DNA from: Planctomycetota bacterium
Lineage (GTDB): Bacteria > Planctomycetota > PLA2 > JAEUHO01
Direction: 5' to 3'
Length of the DNA: 64,000 bases
Assembly: GCA_030066775.1 (NCBI GenBank)
Contig: JASJAY010000011.1
Location: forward strand, 13,047-77,046
Positions 24,881-27,279 of the stretch are shown here, piece after piece (within the stretch, counting starts at the first letter, position 1; the number at the start of each line of letters is the position of its first letter). The position numbers were made by a program, and so were the translations under genes. The notes beneath the pieces were generated by a model. That model ran no database searches. It worked only from the letters and a program-made list of their open reading frames with translations, and had not been told where the DNA came from.

Positions 24881-24952
24881 TGGGGCCCAAGGAGAGAGTC
24901 GAACTCTCGGACCGCTCCTTACGAGGGAGGGTCGACGCCACGTCGCTCGGGC
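24881..24952 (-). tRNA. tRNA-Thr(CGT)-like, 72 nt with encoded CCA; D-arm replaced by mini-hairpin CGACG-TGG-CGTCG (possible pseudogene or non-canonical tRNA)
   Basis: Manual fold: acceptor GCCCGAG/CTTGGGC, anticodon loop CTCGTAA, T-arm GAGAG-TTCGACT-CTCTC, CCA encoded. Confidence 0.45.
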
Positions 24953-24967
24953 ACGGTTCTTGGAAAC

Positions 24968-25043
24968 TGGTGGGCGCGGAGGGAAACGATCCCCCAGCCT
25001 TCGGGGTAAGAACCCGCTGCTCTGCCAGTTGAGCTACACGCCC
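24968..25043 (-). tRNA. tRNA-Lys(CTT)
   Basis: GGGCGTG TA GCTCAACTGGCAGAGC A GCGGG TTCTTAC CCCGA .. CGCGCCC A CCA; T-loop reads atypically (ATCGTTT). Confidence 0.6.
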
Positions 25044-25052
25044 ATGAGAGAT

Positions 25053-25128
25053 TGGCTGGCGCGGCAGGACTCGAACCTGCATGAGTCCGGGCAACAACCG
25101 GGTGCCTTACCAAGTCGGCCACACGCCA
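25053..25128 (-). tRNA. tRNA-Asn(GTT)
   Basis: U1-A72 acceptor TGGCGTG/CGCGCCA, anticodon loop TTGTTGC, T-arm GCAGG-TTCGAGT-CCTGC, G73, CCA encoded; standard lengths. Confidence 0.8.
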
Positions 25129-25136
25129 GAGTGAGA

Positions 25137-25210
25137 TGGTGACCCTGCCGAGAATCGAACTCGGTCTCCCAGGTTGAGGGCCTGGTGTCGTACCAGCTGA
25201 CCCCAGGGTC
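25137..25210 (-). tRNA. tRNA-Glu(CTC)-like (GTC/GAC 3-bp D-stem as in tRNA-Glu; atypical G8 and C33)
   Basis: GACCCTG GG GTC AGCTGGTAC GAC A CCAGG CCCTCAA CCTGG .. CCGAG-TTCGATT-CTCGG CAGGGTC A CCA. Confidence 0.55.
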
Positions 25211-25215
25211 GAGAA

Positions 25216-25290
25216 TGGTGCCGGGCCGTGGAGTCGAACCACGTGACTCGGGGTTATGAGCCCCGACGAAGAACCGTCTTCACACCCGGT
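25216..25290 (-). tRNA. tRNA-Met(CAT)-like (GC-rich anticodon stem; A1/C72 unpaired in my fold)
   Basis: Anticodon loop CTCATAA with stem CGGGG/CCCCG, T-arm CGTGG-TTCGACT-CCACG, CCA encoded; 5' end abuts the CCA of the next tRNA. Confidence 0.5.
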
Positions 25291-25291
25291 C

Positions 25292-25367
25292 TGGTAGCCC
25301 CTCGAGGAGTTGCACCCCGATCTCGGGATTCGTAGTCCCGTGTGCTGTCTGATTGCACCAAGGAGCC
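25292..25367 (-). tRNA. tRNA-Arg(ACG)
   Basis: GGCTCCT TG GTGC AATCAGACA GCAC A CGGGA CTACGAA TCCCG AGAT CGGGG TGCAACT CCTCG AGGGGCT A CCA; canonical except T-loop TGCAACT. Confidence 0.7.
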
Positions 25368-25376
25368 TTGTTGTGG

Positions 25377-25500
25377 ATTGGTCGCTGGGGGCGTGAGGGG
25401 GTTGGGGGGAGCGTGAGGGGTGCAGGGGGGGTACGCAATAGCCCCCCTGCCACGCAGGCGCGAAGCGCCGGAGTGCACAGTCCGCCCGGGTAGGGCGGAA
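25377..25500 (-). repeat. inter-tRNA spacer module: 14-nt duplicate of tRNA-Phe 3' end, two GCGTGAGGGG boxes + G-runs, and hairpin TCCGCCC-GGGTA-GGGCGGA
   Basis: attggtcgctgggg at 25377-25390 equals 25532-25545; gcgtgagggg at 25391-25400 and 25411-25420; hairpin 25481-25499. Confidence 0.6.
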
Positions 25501-25533
25501 CACCATCACGCGGGCCCTGCTACGCCCAGCAAT

Positions 25534-25610
25534 TGGTCGCTGGGGTGGGAATCGAACCCACGACCTCCCGGGCTTCAACCGGGCGCTCTACCTACCGAGC
25601 TACCGCAGCG
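25534..25610 (-). tRNA. tRNA-Phe(GAA)
   Basis: D-arm GCTC GGTAGGTA GAGC, anticodon arm CCCGG TTGAAGC CCGGG, T-arm GTGGG-TTCGATT-CCCAC, A73 CCA; acceptor 5' strand shows one mismatch/offset. Confidence 0.65.
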
Positions 25611-25620
25611 AGAAGGTGAG

Positions 25621-25719
25621 TTGGTGGAGTCGGCGGAGCGTGAGGGGCTTGGGGGGGTAGGCACTAGCCCACCAATGGAGCAGCGGAGCTGCGACACAGC
25701 GTCCGCGCGGGAGCGCGGA
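25621..25719 (-). repeat. second copy of spacer module: 16-nt duplicate of tRNA-Ala 3' end + AGCGTGAGGGG box + covarying hairpin TCCGCGC-GGGA-GCGCGGA
   Basis: ttggtggagtcggcgg at 25621-25636 equals 25771-25786; G-box 25637-25660 about 80 % identical to 25410-25446; hairpin 25702-25719 with compensatory C/G swaps vs copy 1. Confidence 0.6.
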
Positions 25720-25771
25720 ACACACGCATGCCGACGCTGCCCCACCACGTTGGACGGTGGGGCAGGGAACT

Positions 25772-25843
25772 TGGTGGAGTCGGCGGGAAACGAACCCGCA
25801 CCGTGCTGCTTGCAAGGCAGACGGACACCCTGTGAGCGACCCC
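25772..25843 (-). tRNA. tRNA-Ala(TGC)-like, 72 nt with CCA; shortened D-arm
   Basis: Acceptor GGGGTCG/CGACTCC (E. coli Ala-like), anticodon loop CTTGCAA, T-arm GCGGG-TTCGTTT-CCCGC; only 14 nt between acceptor and position 26. Confidence 0.5.
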
Positions 25844-25853
25844 AGGAGAGAAG

Positions 25854-25929
25854 TGGACCGTCCAGTGGGGGTTGCACCCACGCCTCCGGCATGGCACGCC
25901 GACGTGCTAGCTGCTGACACCATGGACGG
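25854..25929 (-). tRNA. tRNA-Gly(GCC)-like (perfect C1-G72 acceptor CCGTCCA/TGGACGG, U73, T-loop TGCAACC, unusual D region)
   Basis: Anticodon loop GTGCCAT flanked by TCGGC/GCCGG, T-arm GTGGG-TGCAACC-CCCAC, CCA encoded. Confidence 0.45.
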
Positions 25930-25944
25930 CCGTATTTCAGGCGA

Positions 25945-26015
25945 TGGCACCTGGGGATGGAGTCGAACCACCTCCGGCGGCTTTGGAGGCCGCCGCATCT
26001 CCGAGACACCCAGGT
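25945..26015 (-). tRNA. tRNA-Trp(CCA)-like, 71 nt with CCA; mini D-arm TCTC-G-GAGA and extended anticodon stem
   Basis: A1-U72 acceptor ACCTGGG/CCCAGGT (as E. coli Trp), anticodon loop CTCCAAA with stem GCGGC/GCCGC, T-arm GGTGG-TTCGACT-CCATC, G73. Confidence 0.5.
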
Positions 26016-26230
26016 GAATGGTGGAAAAACCATCTCTGGATCGGTGGTTTCAAGGAGCCGTAAGGCGCAGGAGCTTGGCTGTGCGCTCGATTCACGGCGG
26101 GGTATAGGCCGTCGCATCAAGGGGCGGACGCACAACCCGGACTTTTCTCCCGGGTCGTGTCCGAGGCACGGAGGCCTGCGGCTGGATCCGCTCCTAGAGT
26201 GGCGCGCCTCCACGAACCTGCGAGGACGCC

Positions 26231-26740
26231 ATGCTCACGAAGGACCATCTGCGCGACTACATCGTCAACGAGTACAAGATCATCAAGCAGCTCGTGACGA
26301 AGCTGCCCGAAGGCAGCGAGGACTTCCGCATCTCGGAGCCCCAGCGCTCGACGATCGAGGTGCTGCGCTATCTCACGCTCGTGGGCCCCGCTACGGTGCA
26401 CGCCGGTTTCGACAACGGGTTCCAGTGGTTCGGCGAGAACGCGAAGGCTGTCGAGAACCTCACGCTGGCCGAGGTGCCGTCCTACCTCGACGGTGCGATC
26501 GCCGAGGTCGAGGCCCTGTTCGAGAAGATGACGGACGACGACTTCGCCAACCGCGAGGTGAGCGTCGAGGGCATGGGCGACTGGACCATGCAGACGTGGC
26601 TCCTGCACACGGCCTGCAAGTTCCTGCCCGCCTACAAGCTGATGCTCTTCCACCACGCGAAGGCAGCCGGCAACACGGACATCGGCACGTTCGACGCATG
26701 GCGGGACAACGGCGAGGTGCCTGCGCCTTCGGCCGGCTGA
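26231..26740 (+). CDS. hypothetical protein, possibly DinB/YfiT-like helical-bundle family
   Basis: 169 aa ORF between the two tRNA clusters; weak similarity in length and His spacing to DinB_2; function not supported beyond that. Confidence 0.4.
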   Translation: MLTKDHLRDYIVNEYKIIKQLVTKLPEGSEDFRISEPQRSTIEVLRYLTLVGPATVHAGFDNGFQWFGENAKAVENLTLAEVPSYLDGAIAEVEALFEKMTDDDFANREVSVEGMGDWTMQTWLLHTACKFLPAYKLMLFHHAKAAGNTDIGTFDAWRDNGEVPAPSAG

Positions 26741-26897
26741 TTCCCCCAGCGCAGAAAACCGAACCCTGTGTGTCCGGGCGACGGGGCGGTGCGACTACGT
26801 CTGAGCACCATGATGCGCCGACTCCCCCAGCACTTGCTTCTCCGACACCCAGCGCGCGCATGACGTCCGCGCTGGCGTGACGTCAGCGCTTCATCAA

Positions 26898-26972
26898 CAG
26901 GGTGTACGTCAGTGGCAGACATCCCGGTTCGGATCCGGGACGACGGTGGTTCGAGTCCACCCACCCTGACCA
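26898..26972 (+). tRNA. tRNA-Pro(CGG)
   Basis: C1-G72 acceptor CAGGGTG/CACCCTG, U8 A9, anticodon arm CCCGG TTCGGAT CCGGG, T-arm GGTGG-TTCGAGT-CCACC, A73 CCA. Confidence 0.75.
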
Positions 26973-26974
26973 TC

Positions 26975-27018
26975 AAGCGCACGCACGAGGGACCGCGCTC
27001 CCCCTGCGTGCGCACCCA
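26975..27018 (+). other. GC-rich hairpin (inverted repeat GCGCACGCAnnAGGG / CCCCTGCGTGCGC) between tRNA-Pro and the next tRNA
   Basis: Read directly: caagcgcacgcacgagggaccgcgctccccctgcgtgcgcacccaag. Confidence 0.4.
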
Positions 27019-27034
27019 AGACCCAGTCACGCGT

Positions 27035-27111
27035 GGTCCTGTAGCCCAACTGGCAGAGGCAGCGGTCTCAGAAGCCGTTCAGTGCAGGTTCGAATCCTGC
27101 CAGGACTACCA
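27035..27111 (+). tRNA. class-I (short variable arm) tRNA with anticodon CAG (Leu codon CUG) - non-canonical tRNA-Leu-like or tRNA-Other
   Basis: GGTCCTG TA GCCC AACTGGCAGA GGC A GCGGT CTCAGAA GCCGT TCAGT GCAGG TTCGAAT CCTGC CAGGACT A CCA; D-region family as tRNA-Lys. Confidence 0.5.
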
Positions 27112-27204
27112 ACCCTCACGCTGCGAACGATGCCGAAGTCGACGAGGCACCGGGCTGTGCCCCCGGTGAAGCGGGTGCGAGTCCCGTCGTTCGCCCCAAC
27201 GCCC

Positions 27205-27279
27205 TACCTTGTGGTGTAACTGGCAGCATCCCCGGCTCTGACCCGGCAGGTGGAGGTTCGAATCCTCCCGAGGTAGCCA
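27205..27279 (+). tRNA. tRNA-Gln(CTG)
   Basis: U1-A72 acceptor TACCTTG/CGAGGTA, anticodon loop CTCTGAC, T-arm GGAGG-TTCGAAT-CCTCC, G73 CCA (matches E. coli Gln identity elements). Confidence 0.7.

Follow-up and report, generated by a model that had tools for sequence, protein, structure and literature searches.

A dense two-block tRNA array with non-canonical members in a Planctomycetota bacterium, probably acquired horizontally

The array and its genes

This work concerns a dense array of tRNA genes at positions 24881-27279 of a 64,000-nucleotide stretch of Planctomycetota DNA (the window hereafter; assembly GCA_030066775.1, contig JASJAY010000011.1, positions 13,047 to 77,046). By combining ARAGORN with Rfam we found 14 tRNA genes in this region, ten on the minus strand and four on the plus strand, which flank a DinB-like open reading frame (ORF) of 169 aa (Table 1). 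The region is made up of two divergently oriented tRNA operons. In transcription order the minus-strand block reads Trp, Gly, Ala, Phe, Arg, Met, Glu, Asn, Lys and Thr, and the plus-strand block Pro, Leu(CAG), His and Gln. All 14 genes encode their 3' CCA. The spacers between them are mostly 1-15 nt, and the density is 5.8 genes/kb (14 in 2.4 kb), the ten minus-strand genes occupying 1.14 kb. In our reading the array is compact and domesticated and belongs with the tRNA arrays that spread horizontally, known as tRNA array units (PMC4758250, PMC5966550) and L-arrays (PMC8421152).

A first-pass annotation, made by a model from the letters of the DNA, had proposed about 13 tRNA genes in these 2.4 kb. 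The dense array and its ten minus-strand genes were confirmed. The plus strand holds four genes and not three, tRNA-His(GUG) having been overlooked, and the count is 14. The short spacers described there were found again, and the CCA of tRNA-Arg, said to abut the 5' end of tRNA-Met, is separated from it by a single base (G 25291). ARAGORN, which had been proposed as a check, called 13 genes in the region, Ala(UGC) not among them. In a search of the whole window, nine of these 13 reached the gathering score of the Rfam tRNA model (RF00005, 29 bits); Trp passed at 35.4 bits in a regional search, and the ten array genes that pass the model score 35.4-58.5 bits. Ala(UGC) (28.1 bits, matched over 25775-25843) and His(GUG) (27.2 bits) lie close to the threshold. 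Thr gave no match to the tRNA model even at E ≤ 10, and the sole match of Met was to the tRNA-Sec model RF01852 at 33.2 bits, below its cut-off of 47. Annotation by standard tools gives too low a count of such genes; used by itself, Rfam leaves out four of the 14 here. Elsewhere in the window, a 79-nt tRNA-Ala(AGC) called by ARAGORN at 45197-45275 was rejected as a false positive, since Rfam does not support it and it falls within a gene of the BtpA family (44676-45494).

Table 1. Features of the array region (window coordinates)
Feature	Position	Strand	Description	Basis
tRNA-Thr(CGU)	24881-24952	-	72 nt with CCA	ARAGORN, cloverleaf in minimum free energy (MFE) fold
tRNA-Lys(CUU)	24968-25043	-	canonical cloverleaf, A73, CCA	ARAGORN, Rfam 58.5 bits
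tRNA-Asn(GUU)	25053-25128	-	canonical, U1:A72, G73, CCA	ARAGORN, Rfam 52.0 bits
tRNA-Glu(CUC)	25137-25210	-	G8, C33, A73, CCA	ARAGORN, Rfam 46.6 bits
initiator-type tRNA-Met(CAU)	25216-25290	-	A73, CCA at 25218-25216	sequence reading, MFE fold
tRNA-Arg(ACG)	25292-25367	-	A73, CCA	ARAGORN, Rfam 52.7 bits
structured spacer after tRNA-Phe	25368-25533	-	repeat families D2, D3, D8, D15	alignment; fold z-score -3.9
tRNA-Phe(GAA)	25534-25610	-	C1:G72, A73, CCA	ARAGORN, Rfam 55.3 bits
structured spacer after tRNA-Ala	25611-25771	-	repeat family D7	alignment; fold z-score -5.9
tRNA-Ala(UGC)	25772-25843	-	72 nt, A73, CCA	Rfam 28.1 bits, MFE cloverleaf
tRNA-Gly(GCC)	25854-25929	-	C1:G72, U73, CCA	ARAGORN, Rfam 40.6 bits
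tRNA-Trp(CCA)	25945-26015	-	71 nt, A1:U72, G73, CCA	ARAGORN, Rfam 35.4 bits (D arm skipped)
169-aa ORF	26231-26740	+	between the tRNA blocks; fraction of G+C at third codon positions (GC3) 0.93	DinB_2 E=0.008, below cut-off
tRNA-Pro(CGG)	26898-26972	+	canonical, C1:G72, A73, CCA	ARAGORN, Rfam 49.8 bits
type I tRNA-Leu(CAG)	27035-27111	+	77 nt, A73, CCA	ARAGORN, Rfam 56.8 bits
tRNA-His(GUG)	27123-27198	+	C73, CCA	ARAGORN, Rfam 27.2 bits
tRNA-Gln(CUG)	27205-27279	+	U1:A72, G73, CCA, C27-C43 mismatch	ARAGORN, Rfam 50.6 bits

Identity elements are retained in canonical and deviant members alike: G3:U70 and A73 in Ala, A1:U72 and G73 in Trp, C1:G72 and A73 in Pro, U1:A72 and G73 in both Gln and Asn, U73 in Gly, G1:C72 and C2:G71 in Thr, and A73 in Leu. 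The gene previously called Gly-like is tRNA-Gly(GCC), and its base 73 is U. The Met gene, for which ARAGORN gives the span 25220-25289, was anchored on its CCA. In this register A1 (25290) stands unpaired opposite C72 (25220), as had been noticed before, and the gene shows further hallmarks of a bacterial initiator: three G:C pairs (GGG:CCC) at the base of the anticodon stem CGGGG/CCCCG, and A11:U24 in the D stem GAAG/CUUC, which carries a short D loop. The 1:72 mismatch is A-C and not the usual C-A. Among the remaining genes, Glu has the G8 and C33 that the first-pass annotation had pointed out, and Phe, not listed there as deviant, carries an additional or bulged base on the 5' side of the acceptor stem in its MFE fold; its Rfam alignment has a deletion in the 3' acceptor strand. 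In the T loop of Lys(CUU), AUCGUUU, positions 54 and 58 hold A and U, an apparent swap of the usual U54 and A58.

Non-canonical tRNA classes and their relatives elsewhere

For comparison we used a set of about 2000 tRNAs from phage (L017-L136), plasmid and species-genome (L137-L256) loci. Three window genes, Thr, Ala and Trp, share one plan: seven acceptor pairs, one or two linker bases, a tiny D hairpin whose triloop always holds GG, a lengthened anticodon arm, a very short variable region and a normal T arm. We define a mini-D class by a D stem of 3-5 bp, an NGG triloop, an anticodon stem of more than 5 bp, a short variable region and a standard T arm, and all three genes fall into it. Thr has the D arm GACG-UGG-CGUC, an 8-bp anticodon arm with one bulged C, and C73 next to its G1:C72 and C2:G71. 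Ala has CAC-AGG-GUG, again an 8-bp anticodon arm with one bulged C, and the T loop UUCGUUU. Trp has GUCU-CGG-AGAU, a 7-bp anticodon stem and a variable region of 2-3 nt. Mini hairpins had already been drawn by hand for these genes. Those of Thr (CGACG-UGG-CGUCG) and Ala were correct, and the one proposed for Trp, UCUC-G-GAGA with a 1-nt loop, is replaced on the evidence of covariation by the stem of 4 bp and loop of 3 nt given above. These D-arm replacements are backed by low or absent covariance-model scores, by the MFE folds and, for Trp, by covariation.

The covariation was seen in an alignment of 11 mini-D Trp genes from the window, L009 (a related metagenome contig, see below), two phage contigs, Myxococcota, Actinomycetota and others. 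Each of the four D-stem pairs covaries, the triloop GG never varies and the anticodon stem reaches seven pairs. Pairing holds in 94% of cells, none of 500 shuffles (0/500) attained the observed values, and slid controls gave 42-53%. Further mini-D examples (Ala, Thr, Met, Gly and Tyr) were found in phages, plasmids and genomes. Within the comparison set, short D regions concentrate in Met (19 of 44 in the genome set), Trp (7 of 22) and Ala (3 of 25). Scanning the species genomes with the exact pattern of the Trp-like D region gave no match, so that the species of the window is absent from that collection.

A second departure concerns the elbow. The D loops of Arg (AAUCAGACA), Gly (CAGCAGCUA) and His (GAAGUCGACGA) lack GG, and the T loops of the same genes carry G55: UGCAACU in Arg, UGCAACC in Gly, UGCGAGU in His. 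The UGCAAC T loops of Arg and Gly had been recorded in the first-pass annotation. In the Gly gene of the related contig L008 G55 is kept, within the T loop UGCGAGU. In the collected arrays a D loop without GG occurs in 39 of 63 tRNAs with G55 as against 30 of 1932 with U55. The window His is 80% identical to a tRNA-His of an Amycolatopsis array that shares its D arm and T loop, whereas phage tRNA-His genes share the D arm but have GG and U55; this difference points to co-variation of positions 18 and 55. An anticodon-loop variant, C33 in place of the near-universal U33, is found in 11% of the tRNAs in chromosomal clusters that contain type I tRNA-Leu(CAG), compared with 2.4% in the phage set. 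In these chromosomal clusters it occurs in Glu CUC (7/22), Gly GCC (13/23), Leu GAG (19/42) and Thr CGU (8/21).

The D stem of tRNA-Sec has 6 bp and its D loop 4 nt. The mini-D tRNAs resemble tRNA-Sec, tRNA-Pyl and some mitochondrial tRNAs, all with a compact core (described in part in PMC7609411), in the small D loop, the lengthened anticodon stem and the short variable region and connectors. Unlike these, they keep the GG of the triloop together with a standard UUCGA T loop, and they probably still form the D/T elbow. They also differ from tRNA-Pyl and tRNA-Sec in serving ordinary amino acids (Trp, Ala, Thr), in bacteria and phages. Our search of the literature, which is no proof of absence, found no description of mini-D tRNAs from bacteria or phages; phages go unmentioned in a 2020 review of non-canonical tRNAs (PMC7609411), and according to a 2024 paper every known bacterial tRNA is a canonical cloverleaf. 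As an array the locus is a further case of a known phenomenon, and it is the recurring, covarying architectures that appear under-described. With considerable doubt, we put forward that the mini-D form (D stem of 3-5 bp, NGG triloop, anticodon arm of 6-8 bp, very short variable region) and the G55 form (G55 paired with A or C at 18) might be conserved, functional and undescribed architectures, kept in accessory arrays because their altered core escapes tRNA-targeting nucleases or quality control while synthetases, EF-Tu and the ribosome accept them.

Bacterial tRNA-Leu normally has a long variable arm. The gene with the anticodon CAG on the plus strand instead has a class I body, with a 5-nt variable loop (UCAGU), a G1-U72 wobble, the D arm GUAGCCCAACUGGCAGAGGC, and U8 and A14. 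Bacterial type I tRNA-Leu is defined by a Leu anticodon, a body of 74-78 nt, a variable loop of 4-5 nt and the D arm GUAGCCCAAYYGGNAGAGGC, and all of these are present in the window gene. By blastn it is 79-83% identical to the short Leu tRNAs of plasmid arrays in Calothrix, Mycolicibacterium alvei, Nonomuraea and Bifidobacterium longum, and it reaches 86% identity to members of its family. The D-arm motif GTAGCCCAAYYGGNAGAGGC has matches in at least 120 phage contigs, and 110 of 127 matches of the motif lie in tRNAs of 74-78 nt carrying one of the six Leu anticodons. Together with a CAG anticodon the motif occurs in at least 120 species genomes (about 35 Planctomycetota and 40 Actinomycetota, plus Myxococcota, Alphaproteobacteria, Verrucomicrobiota, Bacteroidota, Acidobacteriota, Cyanobacteria and others), mostly in clusters of up to 29 tRNAs per 8 kb. 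A small conserved trio of type I tRNA-Leu genes (UAA, CAG, GAG), often adjoining a Tyr or Gln gene, was seen in Alphaproteobacteria (L140, L142, L151, L165, L186, L226, L251) and Planctomycetota (L137, L150). One Acidimicrobiia MAG (nzgw82) has two separate arrays (L206 and L249) with overlapping anticodons, each containing a type I tRNA-Leu(CAG), a direct case of redundancy in this array family.

A Leu anticodon on a class I body is reminiscent of known mistranslating tRNAs, and we considered the possibility that this tRNA is charged with an amino acid other than Leu, in codon reassignment or deliberate mistranslation. We find this hard to credit. The large family to which the gene belongs carries all six Leu anticodons and no others, the gene has A73 and U8/A14, and CUG makes up 40% of the Leu codons in the window genes, so that misreading would be very costly. 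Moreover, the leucyl-tRNA synthetase (LeuRS) of Streptomyces coelicolor attaches leucine to a tRNA of this type, the organism's own type I tRNA-Leu(CAA) (PMC6614811). Going by its published description and not by a sequence alignment, the S. coelicolor tRNA is like the window gene in its 5-nt variable loop (ACAGC there), Leu anticodon (CAA there), A73 and U8:A14. In mycobacteria, type I tRNA-Leu coexists with the normal isoacceptor (PMC6582537). The features of the CAG tRNA are thus best read as those of a type I tRNA-Leu and not of a recoding device.

The His gene deviates at its 5' end also: the base at -1 (27122) is T and not G, as it is in L008 and L009, so that no G-1 is encoded. By the identity rules of the standard bacterial histidyl-tRNA synthetase (HisRS), a tRNA-His with C73 and no G-1 would charge poorly. 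The G-1 may be added after transcription, or the tRNA may be used without it, or it may be poorly charged.

Conservation, setting and origin of the array

Two metagenome contigs, L008 and L009, carry orthologues of the embedded ORF (89% and 86% protein identity) with the same array around it. The gene order is Ala, Gly, Trp, ORF, Pro, Leu, His, Gln in L008, and Trp, ORF, Pro, Leu, His, Gln in L009, where the Old Yellow Enzyme (OYE) gene follows as in the window. Relative to L008, 99.0% of the tRNA bases (517/522) are identical, compared with 85.9% of the third codon positions of the ORF and 77.8% of the spacers; relative to L009, Trp, Pro, Leu and His are 97-99% identical and the third positions 76.5%. 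Both changes of Trp in L009 form one compensatory exchange of G:C to A:U, and Gln in L009 shows a compensatory C:G to U:A exchange together with repair of its mismatch. In Ala, 71 of 72 bases match the L008 copy. The array genes, which ARAGORN and Rfam detect, are real, and this conservation shows purifying selection on them.

These comparisons bear on the view that the array is a decaying relic, its non-canonical members being pseudogenes left from an old acquisition. Such a view would account for the low or absent covariance-model scores of Thr, Met, Ala and His, and some tRNAs of the Anabaena arrays are indeed pseudogenes (PMC8421152). Yet between genomes that have diverged by 14-24% at synonymous sites, Trp, His, Leu, Ala and Gly retain 95-100% identity, compensatory changes are seen, identity elements and CCA are intact, and the same architectures covary across phyla. 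As selection constrains the odd members as much as the canonical ones, they are not pseudogenes; the relic view is largely refuted, and we regard it as very improbable.

The array is present in these two close relatives and absent at the corresponding genes of more distant ones. Three orthologues of the neighbouring HEAT/VWA gene (49-64% identity, on Planctomycetota-like contigs) have no adjacent tRNA genes, and about 125 kb of related Planctomycetota DNA (L001-L007, L014-L016) contained none at all. The embedded ORF is probably a bystander. Its product is 100% identical to a hypothetical protein of a Planctomycetota metagenome-assembled genome (MAG) at NCBI, seven homologues (68-77% identity) have no tRNAs nearby, and tblastn did not place it near any other array; it was rejected as a partner of the array on the last two grounds. 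Encoded CCA also sets the array apart, with 14 of 14 genes here against 10% of the tRNAs in clusters of other Planctomycetota. The absence from distant relatives together with the CCA encoded in all 14 genes favours acquisition in a recent ancestor. The distribution is "sprinkled" in the sense used for L-arrays (PMC8421152), with patchy presence and with related tRNA classes in many phyla and in phages. The first-pass annotation had called such an array no standard feature of this lineage, which holds for the orthologous flanks of the distant relatives, with the nuance that about 35 Planctomycetota species of the genome scan have clusters containing a type I tRNA-Leu(CAG) and that tRNA arrays were already known from a few Planctomycetes (PMC4758250, PMC8421152).

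The genes around the array are ordinary chromosomal genes. They encode HEAT/VWA and TPR proteins, an ECF sigma factor, the Old Yellow Enzyme, a methylguanine methyltransferase, an M28 peptidase, two-component and sigma-54 regulators, superoxide dismutase, ABC transporters, SelA and a SelD-like protein. Two window proteins are 100% identical to hypothetical proteins QNJ98_02790 and QNJ98_02840 of a Planctomycetota MAG (NCBI). Pfam scans covered 49 ORFs from across the window, those of 2004 aa and 1298 aa not among them, and in this set no homing endonuclease or RNA-repair gene is linked to the array. An NYN-domain (PIN-like RNase) protein is encoded at 50892-51959 (minus strand) and a putative endonuclease of the Uma2 family at 33500-34048 (plus strand); neither adjoins the array. 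The selA gene (60424-61911, minus strand; PF03841, E=6e-128) adjoins the SelD-like gene, which is AIR-synthase-related (59355-60311, minus strand). The organism probably uses selenocysteine, and tRNA-Sec is absent from the window.

Two spacers of the minus-strand block, after Phe and after Ala, are strongly structured. They are homologous, about 135 nt each, and both finish with 14-17 nt that repeat the 3' end of their own tRNA, CCA included: in the Phe spacer a 14-nt exact copy (25377-25390 = 25532-25545), in the Ala spacer 25614-25636, which resembles 25764-25786. Three hairpins stay paired between the two copies via compensatory differences, and the part of the Ala spacer that is visible in L008 is conserved. 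The spacers have no Rfam match and no third copy in the window, and one metagenome scan with the spacer element returned two unrelated terminator-like hairpins only. In E. coli, the 178-bp repeats downstream of tyrT each contain the 3' end of tRNA-Tyr and give rise to rtT RNA. The window spacers are like these repeats in lying inside a tRNA operon and in ending, each of them, in a copy of the preceding tRNA's 3' end; they differ in having no sequence or Rfam similarity to them and in following two different tRNAs. They may be what a small element with a preference for tRNA 3' ends left behind on insertion, or else a by-product of the operon comparable to rtT RNA. Separately, a 14-nt inverted repeat (13/14 bases; 24865-24878 and 26030-26043) brackets the minus-strand block, at distances of 3 nt from Thr and 15 nt from Trp. 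Through it the leader and trailer of a precursor could pair, or it could mark an inversion; by a rough estimate about 0.5 such repeats are expected by chance in the region.

The duplicated 3' ends, which look like integration scars, and the bracketing repeat raise the question whether the array is still cargo of a resident prophage, integrative element or plasmid, serving the element and not the host; its tRNA classes, too, are typical of phage and plasmid arrays. We consider this improbable. The 49 ORFs scanned over the 64 kb include no phage or conjugation gene and none for an integrase, transposase or homing endonuclease. The genes on either side are ordinary ones, the downstream OYE gene is syntenic in L009, and the inverted repeat is within chance expectation.

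The same ordinary surroundings, with no mobile-element genes seen, are what a housekeeping cluster would show, and this is the main rival explanation: the 14 genes would be the main or only ones for their anticodons, and the cell would translate with mini-D Trp, Ala and Thr and a His lacking G-1. The strong purifying selection, the initiator-type tRNA and the fact that a type I tRNA-Leu can be a normal chromosomal gene (Nocardia; S. coelicolor, PMC6614811) all agree with it. So does the close fit to host codon usage: for every amino acid covered except Leu the anticodon reads the commonest codon, and the set reads about 53% of all codons (32 window ORFs). We nevertheless think a housekeeping cluster unlikely, though to be taken seriously. 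The array is absent beside the orthologous genes of more distant relatives, and all 14 genes encode a CCA that is rare in other Planctomycetota clusters. Lys, Glu and Gln are represented by C34 isoacceptors only, from which it follows by the wobble rules that other tRNA genes must exist elsewhere in the genome. A standard bacterial HisRS would be expected to charge a His that has C73 and lacks an encoded G-1 poorly. Finally, published arrays with these features are redundant (PMC8421152, PMC5966550, PMC12803027, PMC6582537).

On balance we favour, with moderate confidence, the reading that the array is functional, codon-matched and probably horizontally acquired, one of the compact accessory tRNA arrays that pass between phages, plasmids and chromosomes. 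Several observations weigh against it. No integrase, transposase, conjugation, phage, plasmid or homing-endonuclease gene was found in the 64 kb, and the G+C content of the array region (0.66-0.67) is close to that of the window (about 70%; range 0.67-0.74). In Nocardia the type I tRNA-Leu(CAG) is usually a lone chromosomal gene, so that this tRNA alone is no mark of mobile origin. The codon match would be shown by a native set too. The gene count, 14, is below the 20 required of a tRNA array unit (PMC4758250). A scan with promoter and terminator consensus sequences found no promoter-like site, and no terminator-like site placed to end either block. When the whole array was compared with phage and plasmid collections by blastn, only single tRNAs matched, and the informative matches were all to type I tRNA-Leu. 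Among the approximately 2000 array and phage tRNAs the best identities were up to 86% for Leu, 80% for His and 76% for Trp, and no other window tRNA had a relative at 76% or above. As only these three have close relatives among the collected tRNAs, no donor can be named.

Relation to known arrays and possible role

The first-pass annotation had likened the array to the arrays of partly non-standard tRNAs known from phages, actinobacteria and firmicutes, a kinship that the shared tRNA classes support. An L-array is a closely spaced, same-strand run of tRNA genes, longer than gene accretion would give, in a phylum where lone genes dominate; such arrays are often, not strictly, linked to homing endonuclease or RNA-repair genes (PMC8421152). 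Like the L-array of PCC 7120, the window array has dense same-strand runs, very short spacers, a patchy distribution and some deviant members (PMC8421152), and related cyanobacterial plasmid arrays hold short-variable-loop tRNA-Leu genes, as it does. It differs in having only 14 genes in two divergent blocks, where published L-arrays usually run longer, in lacking a linked HNH homing endonuclease or RNA-repair gene, and in its ordinary chromosomal setting and the CCA encoded throughout. A tRNA array unit was defined in 2016 as at least 20 tRNA genes at a density of at least 2 genes/kb (PMC4758250); the window array, with its 5.8 genes/kb, exceeds the density and falls short in number. With the tRNA array units of Acidithiobacillus, Firmicutes and Mycobacterium (PMC4758250, PMC5966550, PMC12803027, PMC6582537) it shares the high density and a cluster-borne tRNA-Leu with a short variable loop; unlike them it has fewer than 20 genes and no visible phage, plasmid or integrative-element context. 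Phage tRNA clusters (T4, T5, mycobacteriophage C1; IMG/VR L017-L136, L268, L274) also have type I tRNA-Leu and the His D arm GAUGCCGAAGNNGACGAGGC, along with mini-D Trp, Ala and Met tRNAs, G55 elbow variants and anticodon-loop variants. No phage genes accompany the window array, however, and the best identity of its members to collected phage tRNAs is 79% (His) and 76% (Leu).

The anatomy of the array suggests how its products could be made and used. Each block would be transcribed as a polycistronic precursor, from which RNase P would cut the 5' ends and, in doing so, also free the 1-15 nt trailers of the upstream tRNAs; exonucleases would then trim these to the encoded CCA. The cognate synthetases should charge the products, since the acceptor and anticodon identity elements are kept. 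In this way the array could supply a second, structurally distinct pool of tRNAs for the most-used codons, set apart from the housekeeping pool by altered D arms, elbows and anticodon loops. By analogy with other systems, such a pool may support translation under stress or when nucleases cut the housekeeping tRNAs: the L-arrays of Anabaena are horizontally transferred, supernumerary and stress-induced (PMC8421152), and phage tRNAs counter tRNA-cleaving defences and have been proposed as nuclease-insensitive spares (PMC10264068, PMC11555353).

Accessory arrays are increasingly seen as equipment for stress or against defence systems, and little is known about what distinguishes their tRNAs. The array described here, from a phylum in which such arrays have barely been studied, brings together a mini D arm, an 18:55 elbow swap, C33, a type I tRNA-Leu and a His without G-1. 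If these architectures are functional, bacterial translation would accept a wider range of tRNA shapes, and the tRNAs that carry them would be candidates for nuclease-resistant tRNAs and for orthogonal tRNA scaffolds.

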